Source: Acidobacteriota bacterium (lineage in GTDB: Bacteria > Acidobacteriota > Terriglobia > Versatilivoradales > Versatilivoraceae). From it: a DNA stretch of 24,000 nucleotides. A program made the translations under genes and the position numbers. Within the stretch, counting starts at the first letter, position 1; every line of letters starts with the position of its first letter. Where the stretch lies: NCBI GenBank assembly GCA_003224715.1, contig QHZP01000117.1, positions 5,834 to 29,833 of the forward strand, read 5' to 3'. The notes beneath the pieces were generated by a model that did not search any database, was not told where the DNA came from, and worked only from the letters and a program-made list of their open reading frames with translations. Positions 8,614 to 22,948 of this stretch are shown piece by piece.

Positions 8614-9312
8614 CTAGCGCGCTCTTCGCTCAATGCCGATATGAGTCAGCCCTTTCTGGAAGACTTTTCCCCCTCGGATTTCTGATCGACTAAGCAGAAT
8701 CTTTAACTCCTCCAGAGTATAGGCAGCCTTCACCGAATCCCTATATAGCTTCTTCATCAGACCTCGGTAGTATCTGCCAAACCAGGCCACATGAAGAGGG
8801 AAAGTCACTGCAGATGGCCTTCTGAGGTCCCTAAGCAGAATGGCGCCCGCCAGCTTGGTTACTCGCGCGATTTCATTGAGCGTAACCAGGGGATCGGCGG
8901 AATGGTGAAGCAAAGAGTTGCAGGTCACCAGGTCAAAATGGGCCGGAGGAAAGTGAATAGACTGGGCATCGTCTTTTTGAAACCTGACCCGGTCTTGAAC
9001 TCCGCTCAATTCCGCATTTTTCCTGGCCTCTTCGAGCATGGCTTCGGACAGATCAAGCCCGACGATTTGGAAGCGAGGATTCTTCAATGCGAGCTTAATG
9101 GGAATCTGTCCGGGGCCTGTCCCTACATCCAGCACCCATCCCTGCTCTACGCCCAGACCTAGAGCATGTTCCACAAAGCTATTGTCGATTTCGTCGAGAT
9201 AGGCCTGGGAGGAGGCGGAGCTGTAAGCCGCTGCTTCTTCACCACCCCCCATAATCTCCGGCTCAGGAACGCGAGGCAAGAAAAACAGTTCCTGCCGCCA
9301 CTTATTGGGCAT
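8614..9312 (-). CDS. Class I SAM-dependent methyltransferase
   Basis: SAM-binding motif VLDVGTGPGQIPIKLA, then GLDLSEAMLEEARKNA and DLVTCNSLLHH. Confidence 0.85.
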   Translation of the reverse strand: MPNKWRQELFFLPRVPEPEIMGGGEEAAAYSSASSQAYLDEIDNSFVEHALGLGVEQGWVLDVGTGPGQIPIKLALKNPRFQIVGLDLSEAMLEEARKNAELSGVQDRVRFQKDDAQSIHFPPAHFDLVTCNSLLHHSADPLVTLNEIARVTKLAGAILLRDLRRPSAVTFPLHVAWFGRYYRGLMKKLYRDSVKAAYTLEELKILLSRSEIRGGKVFQKGLTHIGIERRAR

Positions 9313-10869: not shown

Positions 10870-11439
10870 CTACGGCTTTCTAACAGCCTCCAGGATCTCT
10901 TTGTCCTTTTCTAAAAGCGCAGGATTATCACTACAGCAACCACTTCCGGAAGTGGTTTGAATTACTGGGAGGCTCAGATGATGCTGCGTCGTCTTAAGCT
11001 GAACTCTCTTACCCTTGGCAAAAATCTCGTGCCGGCCCTGGGTTTTATGCCATTCGGCCAGGGTTGCAGTCTGGTGCATGTTTTCAATAATCTGCCGCCA
11101 CCCCACTCCGGTGTTGTAAGCACAGAAGGAAATCTCCCCCTCCTGGGTGCCATAGGGTATCACACACATCTCAGTGCGGCGGAAGTCGTAAGTCCACAAA
11201 TCCTGAAACCACATACCCTCCACGCATAGGACGCGCCAATCATCGTTGTCCGTGCGCGTTTTCATGCGATCGTTACGATCGCTGTCTGAACGCTCGGAAC
11301 TAGGTTTGAACAGATTCACGATCTGTGAAATCGGAAAGCCCTTGGGAGCTTTATCAGCCTTGAAGTTGCGCATGATGGAAAGAGCCAACTGAGCCGCTGT
11401 GAGAGTCCTTCCGCGAGCGGTATCGGTAATTACGGCCAC
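10870..11439 (-). CDS. C-terminal fragment of a Tes/GDGT-MAS-like (COG1964-type) radical SAM protein, separated from the N-terminal part by a frame change
   Basis: CVEGMWFQDLWTYDFRRTEMCVIPYGTQEGEISFCAYNTGVGWR matches the conserved C-terminal block that is part of the same polypeptide in MJ0619-type enzymes. It is in the -1 frame relative to 11430..12803 and overlaps it by 10 nt. Confidence 0.65.
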   Translation of the reverse strand: MAVITDTARGRTLTAAQLALSIMRNFKADKAPKGFPISQIVNLFKPSSERSDSDRNDRMKTRTDNDDWRVLCVEGMWFQDLWTYDFRRTEMCVIPYGTQEGEISFCAYNTGVGWRQIIENMHQTATLAEWHKTQGRHEIFAKGKRVQLKTTQHHLSLPVIQTTSGSGCCSDNPALLEKDKEILEAVRKP

Positions 11440-12803
11440 ATCGCGAGCGGAGCGAACTCGTGGGTTCGACGATTGACCACCAGCAACGTAAAAATGCCGC
11501 AGTTAGGATGACAGTTGCAGGCGCTCCAGCCCCAGGGCGCATCGTCTCCTTGCAGCAGGTCCATCACACTGGTGAAGGCACTGTAGGAAGAAAGAGGGAA
11601 CCAATCCCGCAGGGGTTCCCAGTCGGCATTTAACTGGGTCTTCAAGTCTTCCACCATTTGCGAGAGCGTATAACGATGGGCATAACGGGTCTGATCATCA
11701 ATATCTTCATCTCGGCCGGTGAAGGAGACAGGTTGAAAAGCAATGGTCTGGATTTTGTCGATATTGCGGATTGCGAACTCCACAATGGAACCAATACCAT
11801 CGTTGTTCACTCCGTTTACAATGGTCGTCACTAAAGTGGTTTTCATTCCCGCTTTGGCCATGTTCTCGACAGCCTGAAGCTTGACATCAAACAAATTTCC
11901 TACGCCGCGATGCCGGTTCTTCTCCTCCGAGGTGCCGTCAAACTGCAGGTAGGCTCCGTGCAGACCCGCCTCGTGAGCCTGGCGCGTAAACTCTTCGCTC
12001 TGCGCAAAACGAATCCCATTAGTAGCCGCCATCACTCGATAGAAGCCAATCTTCTTAGCATACGCCACGGCCTCGATGAAATGAGGAGAGATGGTCGGTT
12101 CGCCTCCGGAAAAGAGAACGATCACCTGGCGGCGCGGCTTGAAGGAAACGGCGCGGTCAAGGATGGCTTTGATGTCTTCAAAGCTTGGCTGATGCACGTA
12201 GCCGACCTGGTTGGCATCCATAAAACAGGGATTGCACATCATGTTGCATCGGTTGGTGAGGTCCACCGTGAGGACAGCGCCCCGGCCAAATTTGATTGTC
12301 GACGTGCCGTGCCGATGAACGTCCTTGTCTTCGGCACATTTGAAATCCCTGCCTAAGAACAGACTTTCAATACGCCGGGTGAAATGCGAGTTGGTGGATA
12401 ATACATCTTCGAAAGGACCGTGTTTGTCGCAAACCTTTCGCATGAGAACCCGGCCATTCTCCTCCACGATGTGCGCCTTGATTTCGCCAGGCTGGCCTGA
12501 GATCAGTGCCGAAATATCCATCTCCCCCTTGATAATCGCATTGCGAACTTCAGGAACACAGCGAGGACAAAGCGAGTCGGTTACTCTGGGGAATCCCAGT
12601 GTGGGAGCCGAGCGCTCATAGCTCTTGAGCATTTTTCCTGGGGCCCATTTGGGGCTGGGCAGTTCCCCTTCGGGAAGGCGCCGGTTAACCGCCTGGAGCA
12701 TCTTCCAAGCCAGATTGGCTATTCCAGAAATACAAGACGATCCGGACCAGTTCCGCAAGAAACTCTTCTCGCCTTCATTCCGGAACATATGATCAGTGTA
12801 CAT
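11430..12803 (-). CDS. N-terminal and radical SAM core fragment of a Tes/GDGT-MAS-like (COG1964-type) radical SAM protein
   Basis: RBS ggagg lies 6 nt before ATG 12803. There is a zinc-ribbon/rubredoxin-like CPRC...KVCDKHGPF, a CxxxCxxC motif CNMMCNPC (12225-12248), GGEPT, and a later Cys cluster ACNCHPNCG. It ends prematurely at 11430 relative to family members. Confidence 0.7.
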   Translation of the reverse strand: MYTDHMFRNEGEKSFLRNWSGSSCISGIANLAWKMLQAVNRRLPEGELPSPKWAPGKMLKSYERSAPTLGFPRVTDSLCPRCVPEVRNAIIKGEMDISALISGQPGEIKAHIVEENGRVLMRKVCDKHGPFEDVLSTNSHFTRRIESLFLGRDFKCAEDKDVHRHGTSTIKFGRGAVLTVDLTNRCNMMCNPCFMDANQVGYVHQPSFEDIKAILDRAVSFKPRRQVIVLFSGGEPTISPHFIEAVAYAKKIGFYRVMAATNGIRFAQSEEFTRQAHEAGLHGAYLQFDGTSEEKNRHRGVGNLFDVKLQAVENMAKAGMKTTLVTTIVNGVNNDGIGSIVEFAIRNIDKIQTIAFQPVSFTGRDEDIDDQTRYAHRYTLSQMVEDLKTQLNADWEPLRDWFPLSSYSAFTSVMDLLQGDDAPWGWSACNCHPNCGIFTLLVVNRRTHEFAPLAMWP

Positions 12804-13912: not shown

Positions 13913-14587
13913 TCAGACAGCCTTTAACTTCCATGCCACCACTTCCAACCGCCGAGAAAAGTGGAGCAAAGGATTTGTCTTGGGTAACTTCAACCCGAAA
14001 GGTTCTGTCATCGTATTAATTTCAATCTCTGCCTCGGCGGGCTGTAAGGGCCAATGATCATGATAAATATCGCCATAATAGACTCGACCGAGGCGGTCCG
14101 CGGCATACAGGCAGTATCTTTCTGTTAACCAGTGATCGATGGTTCCTTGAGCCGGGTGGCAGACATGTCCAACAGGCCGGTATGTTGCGGCAAAATTAAC
14201 GGAGGGAGCCCCAGTATGTATCCGTTTACTGTTGTAACGAATGCCGTTAGTTTCTTCCGAGACGCTGATGCTGGCGTCATAGTACGGCAGGTGGAAAGCC
14301 CATCGGGCACCGCGAACAGCCAGGCGGCTGGAGGCATCCAGACTAAAAAACCAAACGCCAGGTTTTTCACCATGGCTGACATAGGTTCGAACGTTGAGCT
14401 CTGAGAAATTGGAAACCCAGGGCAGCCAGGGAATATACCTGAGCCGGAAACCGGTCATTCGGAATGGAACGACACCAATCCAAGCCTCGCCGTCAAACGT
14501 ATCAATGTGGAGTGAAGGTGGAATGAGCGGGCGGAGCAAATCGACATGAATCGGCCAATGGATGAACAGCAGATCATGCCAGGTCAT
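13913..14587 (-). CDS. DUF2071 (YqjF-like) family protein
   Basis: MTWHDLLFIHWPIHVDLLRPLIPPSLHIDTFDGEAWIGVVPFRMTG is the typical DUF2071 N-terminus. ATG 14587 was chosen because the longer ORF to 14719 would overlap the ubiD-like gene by 65 nt. Confidence 0.7.
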   Translation of the reverse strand: MTWHDLLFIHWPIHVDLLRPLIPPSLHIDTFDGEAWIGVVPFRMTGFRLRYIPWLPWVSNFSELNVRTYVSHGEKPGVWFFSLDASSRLAVRGARWAFHLPYYDASISVSEETNGIRYNSKRIHTGAPSVNFAATYRPVGHVCHPAQGTIDHWLTERYCLYAADRLGRVYYGDIYHDHWPLQPAEAEIEINTMTEPFGLKLPKTNPLLHFSRRLEVVAWKLKAV

Positions 14588-14654
14588 GGCGATTGCCCAT
14601 CCACCACGGGACAATCTGCTTAAGTCCCGATCCGGCTCAGTCAACCTAGGGTCA

Positions 14655-16415
14655 TCAGAGTCCCGCAGGAAAGTATTGTCCCCACCGCGAATCGACCTTC
14701 TTTGCGACTGCGGGATCACAGAATAGCTCCTTTGGGTAGGCAGGCTTCATCCGGGCGTCAATGATCACGGGGCCCCGATAGCACAGGTGATGGCGCCAAA
14801 CTTCGAGGTTGGCCGCGTAAATATCCGCCGCGGGCTCAAAGCGGGTAAAGACGGACCACAGAAACAAGGACGGCGTCCTGGCGATACTGGCATCATCGCT
14901 CAGGACCAGCAAGGGCCAACCTTGAAATCCTTTCCACTGGGAGAGCCTCTCGGCTTGCTTTGGATCGTCCGAATATTTCAGTCCACCCAGCACCAGACAG
15001 CCTGGACAAAAGACTTGCACTTCGCTGACGTCACCAGGAGTCTCTCCCTGGAAGACATGCGGAAGCTGTCTGACAGGCTGACCTAGGCCCAGCAGAATTG
15101 CCTTGCTTCCCTTGTTGACCTCCGGACCACTGTAGTCCAAGGTATCCATGGAAAGATTAGAAATGACGAAAAGGTCTGTTTCCCAACGAACGCGCTGGAG
15201 AACGTGTTCGAGCAACTTGGGGAAATTTCTCAGGTCAATCGCGACGTCGGTTACCATCAGGAATTTGGTCAGCGAAAGTTGACCCTCTCCCAGGATCCTG
15301 AAGGCCGAGGCCATGGCCTCGCGCTCATACCGCTCTCGTACTACGGCGGCGGCAAGGGAATGAAAGCCTGTCTCACCATAGCTCCACAGATCTCGTACCC
15401 CGGGCATGACCAGCGGAAAAAGCGGACTGAGCAATGCCTGCAGGTAATCCCCAATGAAGAAATCTTCTTGCCGAGGTTTACCCACCACCGTGGCCGGATA
15501 AATAGCGTCACGACGATGATAGATCTTTTGCACATGAAAGACCGGATACTCGTGTTGCAGGGAATAGTAACCGTAATGATCGCCGAAGGGCCCTTCCAAA
15601 CGACGTTCCTGCGGTGGAACAAAGCCCTGCAAGACAAACTCTGATTCGGCCGGCAAGGGATGAGGGCCAAAGGAATCTCGAATCATAGGTATCCGCTCAC
15701 CGGCCAACAGGGATGCAATGACCAACTCTCCCACGTTTTCGGGCAGCGGGGATACCGCAGCTAAGAGAAGGGCAGGAGGCCCTCCCAGGAAAACAGTCAC
15801 CGGCAGCGGCTCATTGAGCTGCTCGGCCACCGAATAATGAAATCCACCTCCCTTTTGGATTTGCCAATGCATCCCCGTTGACATGGCGTCATAGCGTTGC
15901 AGCCGATAAATTCCCAGGTTATGTCTCTTGTCCCTGGGATGTTCTGTGTATACCAGAGGAAGCGTGATAAAAGGGCCTCCATCTTCCTGCCATGTGGTCA
16001 GGACGGGAAGAGCATTCAGATTAGCCGGATATTGTAAGACGTCTACGACCGGTCCATGCTTAACATGACGTGTTCCCAACTTCAGGGCCTCTAAAGCCAG
16101 ATTCCGATTTTGCCAAAACTTGGAAAACCCTGGTGGCAGAAGGGTCTCGACAAACTTGACCACCTGCTGCAGGAGTTGCAGCGGGCGAGATCCAAACGCC
16201 AGTTCAATTCTCTTGGCCGTTCCAAAAAGATTGGTAACCACCGGAAAGGCGCTCCCTTTGATATGCTTGAAGAGCAAAGCGGGTCCACTCTGATCAATCA
16301 CCCTCCGGTGAATTTCGGCTGCTTCCAAATAGGGATCCACCTCTACTTCAATCGTGGCAAGATCCTGCTCGTGGCGCAGCAGATCCAGAAATTGTCGGAG
16401 ACTATGAAGTCGCAT
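14655..16415 (-). CDS. UbiD-family (prFMN-dependent) decarboxylase, long form resembling menaquinone-biosynthesis decarboxylases
   Basis: UbiD N-terminus LRQFLDLLRHEQDLATIEVEVDPYLEAAEIHRRV..GPALLF, then GIYRLQ and FGDHYGYYS. At 586 aa it is about 100 aa longer than classical UbiD, like the SCO4490/epsilonproteobacterial type (from memory). Confidence 0.8.
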   Translation of the reverse strand: MRLHSLRQFLDLLRHEQDLATIEVEVDPYLEAAEIHRRVIDQSGPALLFKHIKGSAFPVVTNLFGTAKRIELAFGSRPLQLLQQVVKFVETLLPPGFSKFWQNRNLALEALKLGTRHVKHGPVVDVLQYPANLNALPVLTTWQEDGGPFITLPLVYTEHPRDKRHNLGIYRLQRYDAMSTGMHWQIQKGGGFHYSVAEQLNEPLPVTVFLGGPPALLLAAVSPLPENVGELVIASLLAGERIPMIRDSFGPHPLPAESEFVLQGFVPPQERRLEGPFGDHYGYYSLQHEYPVFHVQKIYHRRDAIYPATVVGKPRQEDFFIGDYLQALLSPLFPLVMPGVRDLWSYGETGFHSLAAAVVRERYEREAMASAFRILGEGQLSLTKFLMVTDVAIDLRNFPKLLEHVLQRVRWETDLFVISNLSMDTLDYSGPEVNKGSKAILLGLGQPVRQLPHVFQGETPGDVSEVQVFCPGCLVLGGLKYSDDPKQAERLSQWKGFQGWPLLVLSDDASIARTPSLFLWSVFTRFEPAADIYAANLEVWRHHLCYRGPVIIDARMKPAYPKELFCDPAVAKKVDSRWGQYFPAGL

Positions 16416-16458: not shown

Positions 16459-16646
16459 CTAGTAGCGAGCCATCTCAGATCTCCCAGCATTACGGCTCCA
16501 TCGGCCACTGACCCCTCACCCGATCCGCCGTCCGGCGGACCACCCTCTCCCAACCGGAGAGGCATGGGGGCTTTGAGAAAGCTCCCGACAACAGGTTAAC
16601 AAACTTGACCAAAGTTTGAACTTTTTCGCCCGCCAGTAACCATCAT
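16459..16646 (-). repeat. Family B GC-rich palindromic repeat, copy B3 (inverted relative to B2)
   Basis: The reverse complement aligns with 5091-5283 (ttcaaactttggtcaagtttgttaacctg...gggagctttctcaaagc...gggagagggtggtccgcc..cggcgga.cgggtgaggggtcag). It lacks the left ccctcaccc arm. Boundaries are approximate and touch the PiT stop codon. Confidence 0.65.
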
Positions 16647-17776
16647 GATAGGAAAGCATCGAGGATGAACCAACTGGTACCGGCGAGCAACCCTGCGGCA
16701 GGCAGAGTAATGACCCAGGCTTGGACCATTGAGATAACGGTTTTCCATTGCAGACTGTGACCCGAACGACAGAGACCAAGTCCGATGATGGCACCTGAAG
16801 AAACGTGGGTGGTGGAAACTGGAATCCCCCAGCGGGAAGCGAACGCAACCATAAAACTGGTAATCAGATTGGCAGAAAGCCCTTCAACAGGGCTCATGAT
16901 GGTAATTTTCTCCGCCAGGGTTTTTGTTACGCGCGAACCCCCCAGGAGACTACCCACTCCCATGGCCAGCGCGACAACAACAAACAGCAAGGAGGAATCC
17001 TGATTGAGAAAAAGTGTCAAAGTCGTGCCTAAAGCGACGATCTTCGGTGCATCGTTCAGGCCGCGAGCAAAACTGGTGAGCCCGCTGGAAAACCAATGCA
17101 GAGCGTCATCAAGCCGGAATCCTACGACGGTTGCAGAACTGGCTTGGCAATGGTCAAAGTGATCAACCACCAGGCGCATCGAAGGCATTGGCTCGTCCGT
17201 GACCGGACTGCCGGCAATCCCAACTGCTGCAGCGAGCTGCACACGCCGCGCCTCGGCACAGGCGCACCCTTTGCTCAACGGTGTGAGTGCTCGGCGGAGC
17301 GCAGGGAAGAGGATCCATAAAGTCATTAAGGCTATCAAAGGGCTGAACAGAAGCGGAACCAAGATCGTCTTCGATACTGAAGCCCACAAGATTCCATGCC
17401 ATCCGAAGGCCATCACACCAGCGCCGCATAGAGCCCCGATGATGGCGTGAGTGGTGGAAACAGGCAAGCCTGTTTTTGTCGCAAATAGCACCCATCCGAT
17501 GGCGCCCATCAGGACTGCGTTTAAAAAGAGGCTGGAAATCTGAAATCGCGAGTCGACTACTCCCCGGCTGAAAGCTGCCACCAGGCCTTGCGAAAAATAC
17601 GCAGAAACCAGCGAGCCCCCCGTTGTCCAGGCAGTACCCCAGAGAATAGCCCGTTGATAATTAGTCACGCCGCTGCCTACTAAGGTGGCGACACCCTTGG
17701 AGATGTCGTTAGAGCCATTGGCGTAAGCGAGGGCAAACACGCCAAAGAACAAACATAAGTTCAAAAGGGGAAGCAT
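16643..17776 (-). CDS. Inorganic phosphate transporter, PiT (PHO4) family
   Basis: The two PHO4 signature halves are NGSNDISKGVATLVGSG and GIPVSTTHVSSGAIIGLG / GLPVSTTHAIIGAL, and the protein is polytopic. The start is uncertain (17776, 17836 or 17878). Confidence 0.85.
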   Translation of the reverse strand: MLPLLNLCLFFGVFALAYANGSNDISKGVATLVGSGVTNYQRAILWGTAWTTGGSLVSAYFSQGLVAAFSRGVVDSRFQISSLFLNAVLMGAIGWVLFATKTGLPVSTTHAIIGALCGAGVMAFGWHGILWASVSKTILVPLLFSPLIALMTLWILFPALRRALTPLSKGCACAEARRVQLAAAVGIAGSPVTDEPMPSMRLVVDHFDHCQASSATVVGFRLDDALHWFSSGLTSFARGLNDAPKIVALGTTLTLFLNQDSSLLFVVVALAMGVGSLLGGSRVTKTLAEKITIMSPVEGLSANLITSFMVAFASRWGIPVSTTHVSSGAIIGLGLCRSGHSLQWKTVISMVQAWVITLPAAGLLAGTSWFILDAFLS

Positions 17777-17987
17777 CCTTGTCTTCTCCACAACGGTCAG
17801 AAGGGGGAAGCCTTGTCCAGTTTCTGACCTATTCATCCTCGTGCTGTTACTCTCGTTCGGTTGGCAACTTTGAATCAACTAAGAGCAGAAGCATGAGCAC
17901 GAGTACGATTCTTCATCGATTCAATTGAGAAGCCCATATATTGCAGGTTTGAGGGACAGCCTGGTACCCAAATTAGGCACCACTGAT

Positions 17988-18113
17988 CTCCCCTCACCCC
18001 CGTCCCTCCTTGGTCCCCGCTGCCCTGATGAGGGCTAGGGGGGAGTATTTCCTTTTTTGGATAACCGCCCTCTCCCACGGGGAGAGGGTGCCCGAAGGGC
18101 GGGTGAGGGGGCC
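17988..18113. repeat. Family B GC-rich palindromic repeat, copy B4
   Basis: ctcccctcaccccc...ccctctcccacggggagagggtgcccgaagggcgggtgaggggg shares the ctctccc-N4-gggagaggg and gggtgaggg modules with B1-B3. Confidence 0.6.
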
Positions 18114-18186
18114 GTTGCTTGCAGAGCGTAGATTTGGTGACACCCACATCTTCCCCAGCTGCAGGACTTGGATGGCAAGCCCCTCT

Positions 18187-20730
18187 TCAGCAGCACGACG
18201 AACTCCCAGGAGCGCAGCATGAGTACTCAATATGACTCCCGTCGGCCCCAGGCTCCAAAATAACAAATGACCCTTGATAGGGGGGATTCATTAACTTTGA
18301 AGCGGTGTCGGTGCAGACTTCAATGGGCTCATTGCGCGGGAAAAGATGACCTTCTTCATCCATGACGGCCTTTTGCGGCCCCAGATAAATGGCCCGCTGG
18401 CCCTTGAACACGCACCCTGTCGTTTTTTCGAATTTGTAGCCACGCACCGTCACTGAGTAAAATTTATAGCCTTCCACTTCCTTCCAATAGGTTTTCTTCA
18501 GTACCTGCAATCCATAAAAACCGGCTCGTTCGAGGTAGACAAGAAATTCCTCCTCGGTAAGAGCGCCAGCAATACACGCGCCCCATAACATGCGGTTCAC
18601 CCGTAAGTGGCTGGGGACAGTCTCCTCACTCACGATGTCACTGACGACAATGCGACCATGGTCTTTCAACACTCGCCACATTTCGCGAAAAACGGCTTTC
18701 TTGTCGGGAGACAAATTGATCACACAGTTAGAAGTGATGAGGTCTGCCGTTCTGCTTTCGACGGGAATTTGTTCAAGGTAACCGCAGCGGAACTCCACCA
18801 CGTCATAGCCAAGGTTATCAGCCACGGGTTGTTTGTTACGATTTGCAAGCGTGAGCATCTGATCGGTCATATCGACACCGATCACCTTTCCCGCCGGGCC
18901 CACTTTCTTGGCTGCAATAAAACAATCGATTCCGCCTCCTGAGCCAAGATCGATGCTGGTCTCACCAGGCGCGAGGCTCGCCATTGTCACGGGAGAACCA
19001 CAGCCATAAAATCGATCAATGACCTCTTGGGGGATATGGCTGATGTCTGACTGGTCGTAGTGGGTCGGACAACACAGACTCGCTTGCGGCTCCTCAGCAG
19101 CCTTGCCATAAAATTCCTGGACAACCCGGCGCGATTTTTCAATGTCGAATGCCAGCACGCAATTAGAATGAAGGGTAGCCACGGCCGTATCGCTGCGAAC
19201 GTCGATCTGATCTGTGTCTGTGCCGCAGGCCACAGCGCCATCCCCCATGGCATGAAAGATAATTGGCGCACTGAAGCCGGAACGTCGATTGAACGCCCGC
19301 TTCTTCTCACTGGCCAGGTCCAGCATGACGTCGTGAGCGATGGCCGTATAAACGTCGTAGTAAGGATCCGGGGCCAGCAGGTTGCCGCCTTGGGATTTAT
19401 CCAGACTGAAAAAGTAGCTGTGTTCGATATCACCGCCGCCTGTGATGTATTTAAAGGGATCATCTACGGGGAGCTGCTTTGACACCACTGACGCCCGTCG
19501 AAATTCTTGGGCCAGTCCTGAGTTTTGCCAGATTTCGCGAAGATTACCGTTGCTGATCATACCAGCAGCTAGCGGTTTGAAATTGGCCGTGGCGGCGGAA
19601 GGATAAACCATGCCGTCCGAATACACGCACATCGAATCCCAGAATTGATTTCCGAGGTCGTATTTCACAAAGGGCCGGCCGTTCACCCTTAACTTCATGG
19701 ATTCGATGTTATCAATGGTCACGCCCAGCGATTGAGCGCGCTGCTTGGTGGCACGCACGATACGGGTCAAGTCCTCTGTGGAGGGGAATGACTTGGGCAT
19801 TGTTTCCAGTACCCGACCACGCCGATGCATCCACATCAAATGCTGAGACTGTGCGCCCCAGTCTTTGACCAATTGGGTGATCTCGGGAATCTCCTCCAGA
19901 TTTTCTGTCATGACCACCGTGGTGAGGGAGACCGGAAATCCGAGCCGGGTGGCGCTACGAGTTCCTTGGCAAATCTGCTCAAATGTGCCGGCACCGCGCA
20001 GACGATCATTGGTTTCGGGTCTGGCGCCGTCCAGCGACACCTGAAGGCGCAGCCGGTCGCGAGAGGCGGCCTCGAGTTTCTTGAGACGCGTGTCGTGAAG
20101 CAAGGTGGCGTTGGTCAAAATGATTAGTTCCGCCTCTTTCTTCTCGGTGATGTAGTGGATCAGTTGGAAGATATCCGGGCGTGCGAACGGCTCGCCGCCC
20201 GTGAAATAGAGGCGTTCTACACCGCAATCAACTGCCTGGTCGACGATATTGAGGAGCTTGACGGTAGACAGACCGCGGTCGGCGGCGGGTGATGAGCTCA
20301 CCAGGCAGTGCGTGCAAGTCAGATTGCAGGAATTGTTGGTGTGAATCCACAATTCTCGAAGTTTCTCAAGTTTCAGGTGGGCCGAGCGTCCGCCATAGGG
20401 GAATCGCTCGATGGGTGTCGTCGAAACCACTTGAGCGCGCAGGGCGTCCCGCAGAAAGGAATGCACATGCAACCAGGCAACAGCGCTTGTCACCTGAAAG
20501 GATTCCGTGTAGCGACGCACCAATTCTCCCAAGGTGACCTTCTGATCCAGCCATCTTAAGATCTGCCCTCCCCGGCTGTCAGTGGCGATCCAATTCGGAC
20601 CTTCAGGATCGATGGCAATATGAACATCGTTCTCTTCGAGATGCCGAACGTCAGGAAGATAAAATAGTTGATCTTCTTTAAGCTCCAACATGATGTATCT
20701 TTTCTCCTTTGGTTCCCAATGAGCATTCAT
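18187..20730 (-). CDS. Fusion protein: PqqD/RRE-like domain + radical SAM core (degenerate SPASM region) + ArsM-type As(III) S-adenosylmethionine methyltransferase
   Basis: CNLTCTHC (aa 135-142, nt 20305-20328) and FTGGEPF mark the radical SAM core. The PqqD-like stretch is aa ~40-105. The ArsM domain is aa ~535-847 with [32 protein letters not shown] and C-terminal SCC..SSCC. An alternative start is ATG 20691, with aaggag upstream. Confidence 0.85.
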
Positions 20731-20839: not shown

Positions 20840-21574
20840 CTAATGCAGAAAAAGCGGAGGAGGGGGAAGCTGATTGACCCTGCGGATGTGGTCGAACATC
20901 CGTAAAATACAGCCTAGAACCGCAGTCTGATCAGGCTGAGATAGGTTAGAGTTGCGCAGATCCAGCAATAAGGCGCGAAGAGGGCCGCCAAGCCGGCAGC
21001 GACGAAGAATCGTTTGCAGGTCAAAACGATCGTCCAGATCATAACAGGCTTCAAGAATTTCCAGGCGTTCGTTCTGGCTGTCGCACTCCTTGACAAGCTG
21101 CGCAAAATCGGTGTTGGCATTCCACTCAATGTTGGAGAGAACCTGAAAATTCTCTCGCGTGACACCAAGCAGATACACGCCGCCCTTCTGATCCGGGCCC
21201 AAAATGATTGTTCCGTTTTTGAATCGCTCCCTGGCTTGACTCAGGAGTTGAACATCTAATTGAGGGCAATCGTTCCCCAAAACCAGAACGCGCTCGTAAC
21301 CCAATGCAAATAACTGTTGAATACTGTGGCAAAGTCTTTCTCCGAAGCCTCTGCCTTCCTGCGGAATGAGGCAGGCCCCAATCTTTTCAAACTCAGAGTT
21401 CTCATCAGGCGGGATTGCAAGGTATACGTCATTCAAAAAAACCTTCTGAGAAGCCTTGACCACGCGACGGGTAAACGACGCGAAAACCCTCTTCGCACTC
21501 TTTGATTGCCTCGGGGGAAACTTATTAGAAGAGTGCCGCAGGCTGGCAAAAATGAGAACCGCCGTTGAGTCCAT
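20840..21574 (-). CDS. DUF2064 / TIGR04282-like (GT-A fold, glycosyltransferase-like) protein
   Basis: RVLVLGNDCPQLDVQLLSQA...ILGPDQKGGVYLLGV...IEWNANTDF...LEACYDLDDRFDLQTIL fits the DUF2064 pattern (GtDcPqL ... GPa.DGGYyLiG ... W.t..v ... DvD...DL). The N-terminal KTRL-type motif is not recognisable. Start is ATG 21574 or TTG 21592. Confidence 0.65.
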   Translation of the reverse strand: MDSTAVLIFASLRHSSNKFPPRQSKSAKRVFASFTRRVVKASQKVFLNDVYLAIPPDENSEFEKIGACLIPQEGRGFGERLCHSIQQLFALGYERVLVLGNDCPQLDVQLLSQARERFKNGTIILGPDQKGGVYLLGVTRENFQVLSNIEWNANTDFAQLVKECDSQNERLEILEACYDLDDRFDLQTILRRCRLGGPLRALLLDLRNSNLSQPDQTAVLGCILRMFDHIRRVNQLPPPPLFLH

Positions 21575-21659
21575 GAGTGGCAATAGGTCCAACAGATTTC
21601 AAAACGATGCTTTTCGGCTTTGACGCAGATCCTAGGACGCCGTAGAAATCGCGTCTGTG

Positions 21660-21721: not shown

Positions 21722-22903
21722 TTATTTTTTAAAAATCGCTTTCAGTTTGTGCACAATCTCTTCGGGTTCGTTGTCGCCGAGACACTGTGGGAAAAAGACA
21801 ATAGTTCCCTGTGAAGCCAGGTTTTCGTAGGTACAGATAATCGGCTCACCTTCCTGAAGCGCATTGATCAATGCGTGGGCATCCAGGCCCGCTCTGTTGG
21901 GATCCACTTGCACATGCGCCGAAGGGACTGGCTGTCCACTTGGCAAGGGAAAAATGCGATGAGCGCATAGCCCGGAAATTTTCTCGACGCCGGCAATGAG
22001 GGTATCGATTCGTTCGTGCCAGGCTTTCAATTCTGCCTCAAAGTCGCGGGTAGCATAAAGTTCTAAAGCGGCGATGAGGCCTGCTATCTCTTCCTTTCCG
22101 ACCTTGAGACCGCGTCCAACCCCGTGATGAGGCGGTCCCGAGAGTGTCCCGTCCACAATCAAGTGCCGCCATGGCCAGGTTTCCGGAAAAACATCCATAT
22201 CTTGATGTTGTAAGGCCACCGAGAGAATCAGATCACGCCTGCCGCATAGGATCCCGCTGGCTTGTGGGCCTCCAATATGTTTTCCTCCGCTAAAGGCTAC
22301 CAGGTCGGCGCCCTGGGCGATGAATTTTCGCAGATTCTCGGCTGGGGGCAGTTCAGCCGCTGCATCGATGATGACGGGAACGTGGTTTGAATGGGCAATC
22401 TGGACGATTTGCTCCAAAGAGAGGCTCCCTTCAACCGACCCGGCTAGAAAGAAGATGGCAGCTGTCTTGTCATTGATAGCTCGTTCCACTTCATAAGGGA
22501 AAGTTGCGTAATTGAAACCTACCTCTACCACTTTGGCCCCGGCGGCTCGTAAAGCGTGATCGTAGTCATTCCGATGGACGCGTTGAATGATGACTTCATT
22601 TTTCATGCCGCGAGCGTCAGGCAAACGGTTCATCTTCAGGGGGTCCAGGCCCGCGATACAAGCTGCCATGCCTAGCGTCAGTCCAGCGGCGGCGCCGGAG
22701 GTCACATATCCGGCTTCGGCTCCTGTGAGCCTGGCGATAATTTGGCCTGCGGCCTGTTGTAAGTCTTCCATTCTGACGAATGACTCGGCTGCTTCTCGCA
22801 TGGCTTGGATCACTTCCGGAGCCATGAGCGAGCCCCCTGCCTTAGTGCTGTAGCTGCGAGCATTGATCACTCGACGCAAACCTAATTTCTGATAAAAATT
22901 CAT
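21722..22903 (-). CDS. SelA-fold (COG1921, DgaE-like) PLP-dependent enzyme
   Basis: VINARSYSTKAGGSLMAPEV, TGAEAGYVTSGAAAGL and FSGGKHIGGPQASGILCG (compare the SelA PLP-lysine motif FSGDKLLGGPQAG). It lacks the ~80-aa N-terminal tRNA-binding domain of genuine SelA. ATG 22903 has aaggag 9 nt upstream. Confidence 0.8.
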   Translation of the reverse strand: MNFYQKLGLRRVINARSYSTKAGGSLMAPEVIQAMREAAESFVRMEDLQQAAGQIIARLTGAEAGYVTSGAAAGLTLGMAACIAGLDPLKMNRLPDARGMKNEVIIQRVHRNDYDHALRAAGAKVVEVGFNYATFPYEVERAINDKTAAIFFLAGSVEGSLSLEQIVQIAHSNHVPVIIDAAAELPPAENLRKFIAQGADLVAFSGGKHIGGPQASGILCGRRDLILSVALQHQDMDVFPETWPWRHLIVDGTLSGPPHHGVGRGLKVGKEEIAGLIAALELYATRDFEAELKAWHERIDTLIAGVEKISGLCAHRIFPLPSGQPVPSAHVQVDPNRAGLDAHALINALQEGEPIICTYENLASQGTIVFFPQCLGDNEPEEIVHKLKAIFKK

Positions 22904-22948
22904 CGGTCTCACTCCTTGCCCTTCACTCACGATTGCTTTCCCACAGGC

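Follow-up and report, generated by a model that had tools for sequence, protein, structure and literature searches.

Organization of the locus

We analyzed a 24,000 nt stretch of DNA from an Acidobacteriota bacterium (assembly GCA_003224715.1, contig QHZP01000117.1, positions 5,834 to 29,833; here referred to as the window). It contains a gene in which an enzyme module of the radical S-adenosylmethionine (SAM) type is joined to a methyltransferase domain of the ArsM type, here named the rSAM-ArsM fusion. According to the list of open reading frames (ORFs) and the translation, positions 18187 to 20730 form one unbroken ORF of 847 amino acids (aa) on the minus strand when counted from the first ATG. 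The initial annotation had rightly described this ORF as uninterrupted; the strand had to be corrected to minus and the start most probably has to be moved to M14, resulting in a product of 834 aa. The shorter form is proposed because homologues found by protein sequence search are approximately 834 aa long, because the gene call on a 100% identical metagenome contig begins at M14 and because a Shine-Dalgarno sequence (AAAGGAG) is located directly 5' of the ATG at 20691. Residue numbers follow the 847-aa numbering unless the 834-aa numbering is stated.

Four regions could be distinguished within the protein: a PqqD-like domain, putatively of the type known as recognition element (RRE) of peptides that are made by ribosomes and modified after translation (RiPPs), a radical SAM core, a degenerate SPASM domain and a complete ArsM. 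The same architecture had been proposed initially, and it was supported by Pfam and NCBIfam matches, matches to PDB entries, Foldseek comparisons and the conservation of cysteines. The protein stayed below the cut-off of every curated NCBIfam model. The AlphaFold2 model, built on 61 homologues, reached a mean predicted local distance difference test score (pLDDT) of 87.8 and a predicted template modelling score (pTM) of 0.87. The positions of all regions and of the adjacent features are given in Table 1.

Table 1. Features of the rSAM-ArsM fusion gene and its direct surroundings (positions in the window)
Feature	Position	Strand	Basis or remark
rSAM-ArsM fusion gene	18187..20691, stop codon included	minus	834 aa from M14; 847 aa if start = 20730
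PqqD-like / RRE domain (aa 37-100)	20431..20622	minus	Pfam PqqD; AlphaFold2 fold; Foldseek to SuiB
Radical SAM core (aa 132-287)	19870..20337	minus	Pfam Radical_SAM; CNLTCTHC motif at 20305-20328
Degenerate SPASM/twitch domain (aa ~355-475)	19306..19668	minus	Pfam SPASM; auxiliary-cluster Cys ligands all replaced
C-terminal Cys motif of the radical SAM module, C502...H-S-N-C524-V-L	19144..19248	minus	Cys conservation; same motif in stand-alone relatives
ArsM-type As(III) SAM methyltransferase domain (aa 530-820)	18271..19143	minus	PRK11873, PDB matches, Foldseek, Cys conservation
C-terminal flexible tail carrying two pairs of vicinal Cys (aa 836-847)	18190..18225	minus	Cys conservation; low pLDDT over model residues 824-834
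GC-rich palindromic structured spacer 3' of the fusion	17980..18186 (also given as 17880-18186)	minus	Inverted repeats; RNA fold -97 kcal/mol, z = -2.3
PHO4/PiT-family phosphate (arsenate) transporter gene downstream of the fusion, 377 aa from M35	16643..17776	minus	Pfam PHO4 229 bits; 377-aa gene call on identical contig
DUF2064 gene, TIGR04282-related, upstream of the fusion	20840..21592	minus	TIGR04282 match; Pfam DUF2064 76 bits

The radical SAM module

The N-terminal RRE region matched Pfam PqqD with 22.0 bits, just below the gathering score of 23.4, and several homologues of the fusion have a precomputed match to the same family (PF05402). The domain is predicted to adopt a fold of three strands and three helices (pLDDT > 90). 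Its PNW and RG columns were invariant in the alignment of the fusion family.

The following radical SAM (rSAM) core was recognized by the Pfam model Radical_SAM (PF04055) with 91 bits at a cut-off of 29.5. The three ligands of the CX3CX2C motif (C135, C139 and C142 within CNLTCTHC, aa 135-142) were invariant in 156 family members, and FTGGEPF, which includes the SAM-binding motif TGGE, was invariant in the fusion family. Among the NCBIfam models the Rv1681 family, TIGR04053, NirJ2, AhbD, MftC, a sactipeptide maturase, PqqE and MoaA were matched, all of them far under their cut-offs. The model of the arsenosugar enzyme ArsS (TIGR04167) was neither among the best 25 NCBIfam matches of the fusion, the weakest of which had 65 bits, nor among the matches listed at E ≤ 1e-20 for eight relatives (the best 25 for three of them). 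Comparison of the core with PDB sequences resulted in matches to BlsE, PqqE and SkfB. Foldseek aligned the N-terminal half of the predicted structure to SuiB over up to 484 columns including the RRE of SuiB, and furthermore to SkfB, anSME, BlsE and PqqE. These matches place the core within the SPASM, peptide-maturase or MoaA type and not with ArsS, in agreement with the initial annotation.

The SPASM region itself scored marginally above the Pfam gathering score (aa 363-411; 21.6 versus 21.5 bits). Unfused or more distant relatives carry the ligands of the auxiliary clusters as CxxC, one further Cys, CxxCx5CxxxC and DPYC. The fusion has G360, F363, S377, P421, D424, T430, D434 and Y468 at the ligand positions, so that every cluster-ligand Cys is replaced in a region for which the loss of nearly all cysteines had already been noted. 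The CxxCx5C triad was retained by only 32 of the 156 family members, and the 10-residue motif found in place of the SPASM cysteines was invariant or nearly so in the clade of the window. From the replaced ligands and the conserved replacement motif, we predict that the SPASM fold is retained and that both auxiliary iron-sulfur clusters are lost. C368 was invariant in all 156 members.

At the end of the module a further motif with two cysteines was found (C502...H-S-N-C524-V-L). C524 was invariant and C502 was present in 136 of the 156 family members. Since stand-alone relatives carry a counterpart at their C-terminus, C...(Y/F/L)H-C-x-C-V-L, we assign this motif by sequence to the rSAM module and not to ArsM.

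The ArsM-type domain

The best NCBIfam match of the whole fusion was the arsenite methyltransferase PRK11873 (NF008823) with 248.9 bits, 14 under the cut-off of 263, covering profile positions 40-235 of 272. It was followed by the ArsM models of the arsinothricin pathway (212 bits, cut-off 500) and of the arsenosugar pathway (164 bits, cut-off 400). Pfam Methyltransf_31 matched aa 588-737 (E 2e-29). The SAM motif DxGxGxG is present, with D581, G583, G585 and G587 (834-aa numbering) being invariant. When aa 524-816 were compared to PDB sequences, the ArsM proteins of Chlamydomonas (CrArsM) and Cyanidioschyzon (CmArsM) and human AS3MT were found with E values of 1e-35 to 1e-38. Foldseek matched the C-terminal half to 6cx6 (E 1.1e-23, template modelling score normalized to the target 0.64, 304 columns) as well as to 5evj and 8xt7. 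The separate domain searches and the predicted structure thus bear out both the rSAM and the ArsM assignments.

The four-Cys set of CmArsM consists of C44, C72, C174 and C224. In HMMER alignments with 4fr0/4kw7, C577, C669 and C719 of the fusion lined up with C72, C174 and C224, whereas C553 and C554 lined up with the N-terminal Cys of CrArsM (5evj). The residues C554, C577, C669 and C719 were invariant and C553 occurred in 154 of the 156 family members, so the As(III)-binding columns named in the initial annotation do align. The cysteines C502, C553, C773, C806, C839, C846 and C847 were conserved in 87-99% of the members. Both vicinal pairs of the tail (C838/C839 and C846/C847) are present as described before; C839, C846 and C847 were kept in at least 94% of the family and C838 in 71 of 156 members only.

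The C-terminal half agreed with every sequence and fold criterion applied, with the exception of the curated bit-score. In terms of sequence and predicted fold it is a complete ArsM-type As(III) SAM methyltransferase in which none of the arsenic-binding cysteines is missing. Both catalytic domains of the fusion have intact and strongly conserved cofactor and substrate motifs.

Distribution of the fusion

In a word-indexed search 1348 proteins matched the fusion at E ≤ 1e-5. The best 120 of them were fusions throughout, with 53-100% identity and lengths of 790-884 aa (820-880 in nearly all cases), and those with a name were called merely "methyltransferase domain-containing protein" or the like. 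A scan of one genome per species identified the fusion at 43 loci, a few of which were truncated by contig ends, with 37-91% identity over the full length. All 43 were found in metagenome-assembled genomes (MAGs) from approximately ten phyla and represent the ~830-aa form. The hosts were Acidobacteriota (Vicinamibacterales, Thermoanaerobaculia), Nitrospirota, Omnitrophota, Elusimicrobiota, Dadabacteria, Zixibacteria, Latescibacterota, Thermodesulfobacteriota and one Spirochaetia MAG. The closest relative among these loci was found in an Acidobacteria soil MAG (91% identity).

An assembly chimera was ruled out, since 43 independent loci and more than 1300 homologous proteins show the fusion and an identical protein is present on an independent contig. 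A full-text literature search, with most subscription journals outside its coverage, gave no description of an RRE-rSAM-ArsM fusion in the papers reached, which is in line with what had been assumed at the outset. Likewise, no characterized non-metalloid function turned up for the family. It is widespread and uncharacterized in uncultured soil and groundwater bacteria.

Relatives of the radical SAM module

Using aa 14-530 as the query of an exhaustive HMMER search, we obtained 152 cluster representatives at E < 1e-30; in 68 of these the match covered 380 aa or more of the rSAM module. An ArsM-like methyltransferase match was present in 38 of these 68 (36 C-terminal, 2 N-terminal), 27 were stand-alone proteins of 405-543 aa and three carried other tails. 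The number of true ArsM-type fusions is somewhat below 38, because at least three of them (P0160, P0161 and P0180) showed only a weak generic methyltransferase match (22-26 bits) without the arsenic-site motifs.

The linkage between rSAM module and ArsM was found in at least four architectures: with a full C-terminal ArsM, with a shortened ArsM, with ArsM followed by a DUF5714/MbdU-like domain, and with an N-terminal ArsM. The third of these was represented by 15 proteins of 948-1079 aa (including P0147, P0170 and P0174). Their C-terminal DUF5714 domain resembles the "metal-binding double selenoprotein MbdU", and in their ArsM part the equivalents of C72, C174 and C224 are kept and that of C44 is lost. 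The recurrence of fusions in differing orders and combinations argues for a common pathway of ArsM and this rSAM clade.

Further variants were observed in single representatives. P0194 and P0200 (705-711 aa) carry ArsM N-terminal to the rSAM module, P0167 (721 aa) carries two TusA sulfur-carrier domains next to it, and the stand-alone members P0232, P0273 and P0281 lack CX3CX2C and thus are pseudo-radical-SAM proteins.

Two stand-alone relatives (P0158 and P0175) are located in overlapping operons with genes of the families TIGR04283 (235 and 253 bits, cut-off 182) and TIGR04282 (195 and 200 bits, cut-off 134), both of which are annotated as "arsenosugar biosynthesis glycosyltransferase". In this setting the position of the rSAM gene is one that ArsS usually occupies. 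The gene order was TIGR04283 - rSAM - TIGR04282 in locus L060 and rSAM - TIGR04283 - TIGR04282 in locus L059. A flippase-like gene was present in both loci; L060 additionally contained VTT and C_GCAxxG_C_C genes. We take both TIGR families to have been defined through their association with ArsS (TIGR04167), according to the NCBIfam/TIGRFAMs descriptions.

Gene neighborhood of the fusion

A DUF2064 family gene, as present upstream of the fusion in the window, adjoins it in about half of the related loci, and a cluster of glycosyltransferase family 2 (GT2)/DUF2064 genes was found in 22 of them. In total, 26 GT2/DUF2064 neighbors were compared at E < 1e-30; 15 matched TIGR04283 and nine TIGR04282. 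The curated cut-offs of these two families were exceeded in L015 and L022 as well as in L059 and L060, the loci of the two stand-alone relatives.

A PHO4 gene was located near the fusion on the same strand in the window and in 11 related loci, mostly within ~100 nt. In one Thermodesulfobacteriota and one Deltaproteobacteria MAG (L010, 7573-14072, and L019, 7555-14652) the order was ArsR - fusion - PstS-family ... PstB-family. The scores of the latter two stayed just under the cut-offs (PstS 192-202 bits versus 206.6; PstB 319-328 versus 343), and these sequences suggest a divergent Pst system which is possibly specialized for arsenate. Further recurrent neighbors were VTT/TVP38, a MerA-like flavoprotein, DUF547, DUF3047 and a membrane protein resembling glycosyltransferase family 87 (GT87). 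A motif scan of all neighborhood ORFs found no ArsS-like rSAM protein; the scan picked up nothing beyond MoaA, a single CxxxCxxC protein that could not be classified and a fragment of the fusion.

The window also carries a gene related to the rSAM enzymes Tes/TrsS (10870-12803, minus strand), which is tetraether lipid synthase-like and has an HMPTM zinc ribbon. It is split into ORFs of 457 and 189 aa by a single frameshift near 11430-11445 and represents either a pseudogene or an assembly error; the homologues are single ORFs of 636-714 aa. Tes-like homologues were found 2-7 kb from the fusion in the window and in ten related loci (nine Vicinamibacteria/Acidobacteria, one Dadabacteria) with 313-350 bits, under the Tes cut-off of 450. 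This arrangement hints at a possible functional link between both genes.

Other genes of the window, all on the minus strand, showed little synteny with the fusion or weak similarity to ArsM. A SelA-related/DgaE-family pyridoxal phosphate enzyme (21722-22930; 249 bits, cut-off 385) is located upstream of the DUF2064 gene, and its synteny with the fusion was found only in the closest relative L002. Downstream of PHO4, a UbiD-family decarboxylase (13913-16415) reached 495.4 bits at a cut-off of 495.9 for the menaquinone decarboxylase of the futalosine pathway. It is followed by a DUF2071 gene, and this pairing with the fusion was conserved only on the 100% identical contig L057. A class I methyltransferase of 232 aa (UbiE/MenG-like, 8614-9312) is weakly similar to ArsM and lacks the ArsM-specific regions.

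Downstream spacer and search for a precursor peptide

The palindromes of the spacer between the fusion and PHO4 include CCCTCTCCC-CGT-GGGAGAGGG as well as CCCCTCACCC and GGGTGAGGGG, which are 101 nt apart. The spacer looks like a REP-type (repetitive extragenic palindromic) element or a terminator. Rfam gave no match in the window, and the scans for promoters and terminators stayed at background level. An ORF of 90 aa (17875-18147) sits within the palindromic spacer. It had no family match and probably does not represent a gene.

Among the ORFs of 20-90 aa located up to 2.5 kb from the fusion in 37 loci none was conserved, and an all-against-all comparison of 118 small ORFs from these loci did not result in any cross-locus cluster. 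No cognate precursor-peptide gene was found in these neighborhoods. Since there is no such conserved ORF and the 90-aa ORF is part of the spacer, the second option of the initial annotation, namely that the enzyme modifies a peptide, is disfavored. The only RiPP-type neighbor seen was an MbnB/TglH/ChrH RiPP-modification enzyme ~3 kb downstream of the fusion in an Omnitrophica locus (L015, 13697-14800).

Proposed function

ArsM methylates As(III), and arsenate is taken up by cells through Pit and Pst systems. Considering the domain composition and the neighboring genes, we see about an even chance that the fusion is a bifunctional organoarsenical synthase, in which ArsM would methylate As(III) and the rSAM domain, as a non-homologous analogue of ArsS, would form a further As-C bond. 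The initial annotation had offered a novel C-As product as its first option; this is favored by the gene context, i.e. neighbors of the TIGR04282/TIGR04283 type, PiT or Pst transporters and ArsR.

According to this proposal arsenate would enter through the adjacent PiT transporter, or Pst in relatives, and would then be reduced. On the ArsM domain As(III) would become methylated or dimethylated, and a further As-C bond would be added at the same arsenic by the rSAM domain, most likely by addition of the 5'-deoxyadenosyl radical onto dimethylarsenite (DMAs(III)) in an ArsS-like manner. The arsenical might pass from ArsM to the rSAM domain by way of the flexible CC...CC tail, the C502/C524 motif or both, and the fusion would hold the toxic and readily oxidized trivalent intermediate on the enzyme. 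The product may be passed on to the TIGR04282/TIGR04283 glycosyltransferase-like enzymes and the membrane proteins, leading to an arsenosugar-type compound or a lipid. We can only speculate that the RRE docks the Cys-rich tail of the protein itself or a partner protein.

ArsS adenosylates DMAs(III) to DDMAA (5'-deoxy-5'-dimethylarsinoyl-adenosine) in a redox-neutral reaction, with the electron being returned to the radical-SAM cluster (PMC13598754). The loss of the auxiliary clusters would fit an ArsS-like reaction, because no external electron sink is needed. ArsL uses C-terminal cysteines for arsenic binding (bioRxiv 10.64898/2026.04.29.721666). Due to this parallel we regard C502 and the HxxC524 motif as a candidate arsenic (substrate) binding site.

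Several observations weigh against such a synthase. For the putative RRE, which is retained, small-molecule chemistry offers no obvious role. At the family level there is no homology between the rSAM domain and ArsS, the best NCBIfam matches of this domain being the sub-cut-off ones to the Rv1681 family, NirJ2, AhbD and MftC. No ArsM was found within 6 kb of the unfused relatives examined, and no adenine-removing nucleosidase was seen among the recurrent neighbors. The DUF2064 gene of the window stays under the TIGR04282 cut-off (95.8 bits versus 134), and a structured spacer of ~410 nt separates the fusion from PHO4. Moreover, the arsenosugar role of TIGR04282/TIGR04283 is an annotation derived from co-occurrence with ArsS for which we know of no experiment.

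Comparison with known systems

To our knowledge, As-C bonds are formed by only two rSAM routes, that of ArsS and that of ArsL, both enzymes being stand-alone proteins paired with ArsM. The arsenosugar system of Synechocystis likewise pairs an rSAM enzyme (ArsS, TIGR04167) with an ArsM-type methyltransferase, and its TIGR04282/TIGR04283 gene context is shared by relatives of the fusion. The chemistry that we propose by analogy would be the same, i.e. formation of DMAs(III) followed by 5'-deoxyadenosyl addition. However, the two activities reside on two proteins there and on one polypeptide here. ArsS forms a family of its own with a Cys/Sec-rich C-terminal domain, whereas the rSAM part of the fusion has an RRE-rSAM-SPASM scaffold ending in C...HxxCVL. 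The ArsM domain also differs from the arsenosugar ArsM, as its score stays far below the cut-off of that model.

In the arsinothricin system the rSAM enzyme ArsL makes an As-C bond along with ArsM, as proposed for the fusion, and the arsenic-binding C-terminal cysteines of ArsL would have their counterpart in C502/C524. In contrast to the fusion, ArsL is a separate protein, and it moves a 3-amino-3-carboxypropyl group by non-canonical SAM cleavage. The score of the ArsM domain against the arsinothricin ArsM model was likewise far under the cut-off. Judged by names only, no ArsL model was among the best NCBIfam matches and no ArsQ-type permease was among the recurrent neighbors.

With the RRE-rSAM/SPASM maturases SuiB, PqqE, SkfB and MftC, a group to which its rSAM half belongs by predicted fold, the fusion shares the order and predicted structure of a putative RRE, TIM-barrel rSAM domain and SPASM-like fold. 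The clade of the window differs by the absence of two features that define this group, the auxiliary-cluster cysteines and a nearby precursor gene, and by the fused metalloid methyltransferase. The ArsM domain has ~30-33% identity to CmArsM, CrArsM and human AS3MT and shares with them the three-part fold including the C-terminal domain, the four catalytic Cys columns and the SAM motif. What distinguishes the fusion from stand-alone ArsM/AS3MT is the 520-aa rSAM module, the additionally conserved C773 and C806 and the CC...CC tail. As judged from the sequence, the new feature would be the organoarsenical-type pairing of rSAM and ArsM in one protein with an rSAM domain not homologous to ArsS.

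Alternative explanations

Among the alternatives, the best surviving one is that the rSAM domain abstracts a hydrogen from a lipid or sugar and that the arsenical methylated by ArsM joins the resulting carbon radical, leading to an arsenolipid or another organoarsenical instead of an adenosyl adduct. Membrane-type neighbors do recur (VTT/TVP38, the GT87-like membrane glycosyltransferase, a flippase-like LPG_synthase_TM protein and a polyprenyl-phosphate GT2-like enzyme), the Tes-related lipid rSAM gene lies 2-7 kb away in the window and ten related loci, and the closest structural relatives of the rSAM half all abstract hydrogen. However, the auxiliary clusters needed by most substrate-oxidizing SPASM enzymes are lost in the fusion clade, the Tes-like linkage is missing from most fusion-bearing phyla and we know of no precedent for an As-C bond made in this way. 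Overall we regard this route as unlikely, at roughly one chance among several.

The true substrate might be another soft element (Se, Te or Sb) or a sulfur species, leading for instance to seleno- or thio-sugars. Families for which selenocysteine-containing members are recorded are among the closest matches and neighbors (ArsM/AhpD, ArsM/DUF2284 and MbdU-like models, the C_GCAxxG_C_C (seleno)protein, a TsoB-like protein and the TusA fusion), and ArsS is listed among the families with selenoprotein members (PMC13188914). This is opposed by the four-Cys constellation, which binds As(III) in crystals of CmArsM (PDB 4fsd, 6cx6), and by the ArsR-type regulators and phosphate/arsenate-type transporters flanking the fusion. 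We therefore hold a different element to be improbable.

Slightly more doubtful still is a RiPP or protein maturase, in which the RRE would bind a peptide, the rSAM domain would modify it and the ArsM-like domain would methylate a Cys-rich peptide or an arsenic-peptide adduct. Such a role is suggested by the RRE fold with its strongly conserved, invariant PNW and RG columns, by the overall likeness to SuiB, SkfB and PqqE and by the MbnB/TglH/ChrH enzyme of one locus. It is opposed by the lack of a conserved small ORF in the 37 loci, by the palindromic nature of the 90-aa ORF of the window and by the loss of the auxiliary clusters, which SPASM enzymes acting on peptides typically have; furthermore, the neighbors are glycosyltransferase-like enzymes and transporters and not peptidases or exporters.

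Plain detoxification, with ArsM volatilizing arsenic and the rSAM domain being accessory (electron supply or C-As cleavage) or inactive, is the least probable of all: stand-alone ArsM is an established detoxification enzyme and ArsR adjoins the fusion in some loci, but about ten phyla show invariant SAM-binding and cluster motifs, which argues for selection on the rSAM domain as a catalyst, the adjacent phosphate/arsenate importers run counter to the logic of detoxification and the recurrent neighbors noted included neither arsB/acr3 efflux genes nor arsC.

Implications

Returning to the bifunctional organoarsenical synthase, we consider it possible, with a confidence somewhat short of even, that the fusion represents a third, independently evolved class of arsenic-directed rSAM enzymes after ArsS and ArsL. 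This class would combine an RRE-rSAM-SPASM scaffold devoid of the auxiliary clusters with a C-terminal Cys arsenic site and would be joined to ArsM, which would bring methylation and the radical formation of As-C bonds together on a single protein. Together with dedicated arsenate importers and TIGR04282/TIGR04283 enzymes it would then form an unrecognized genetic basis of arsenosugar or arsenolipid synthesis in Acidobacteriota, Nitrospirota, Omnitrophota, Elusimicrobiota and other uncultured phyla of soil and groundwater.

The fusion may serve as a "Rosetta stone" which links a large unannotated clade of SPASM-type rSAM proteins to arsenic chemistry, and it offers a single-gene target for biochemistry. 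If the proposed function is true, it would clearly exemplify how an RRE/SPASM maturase scaffold that had lost its auxiliary clusters was put to new use in the small-molecule chemistry of a metalloid, and the TIGR04282/TIGR04283 system would become open to experiment in a second, independent genetic setting. Soils, aquifers and sediments would then harbor the synthesis of complex organoarsenicals far more commonly than the biology of cyanobacteria and algae implies, with a bearing on the speciation and mobility of arsenic in groundwater.

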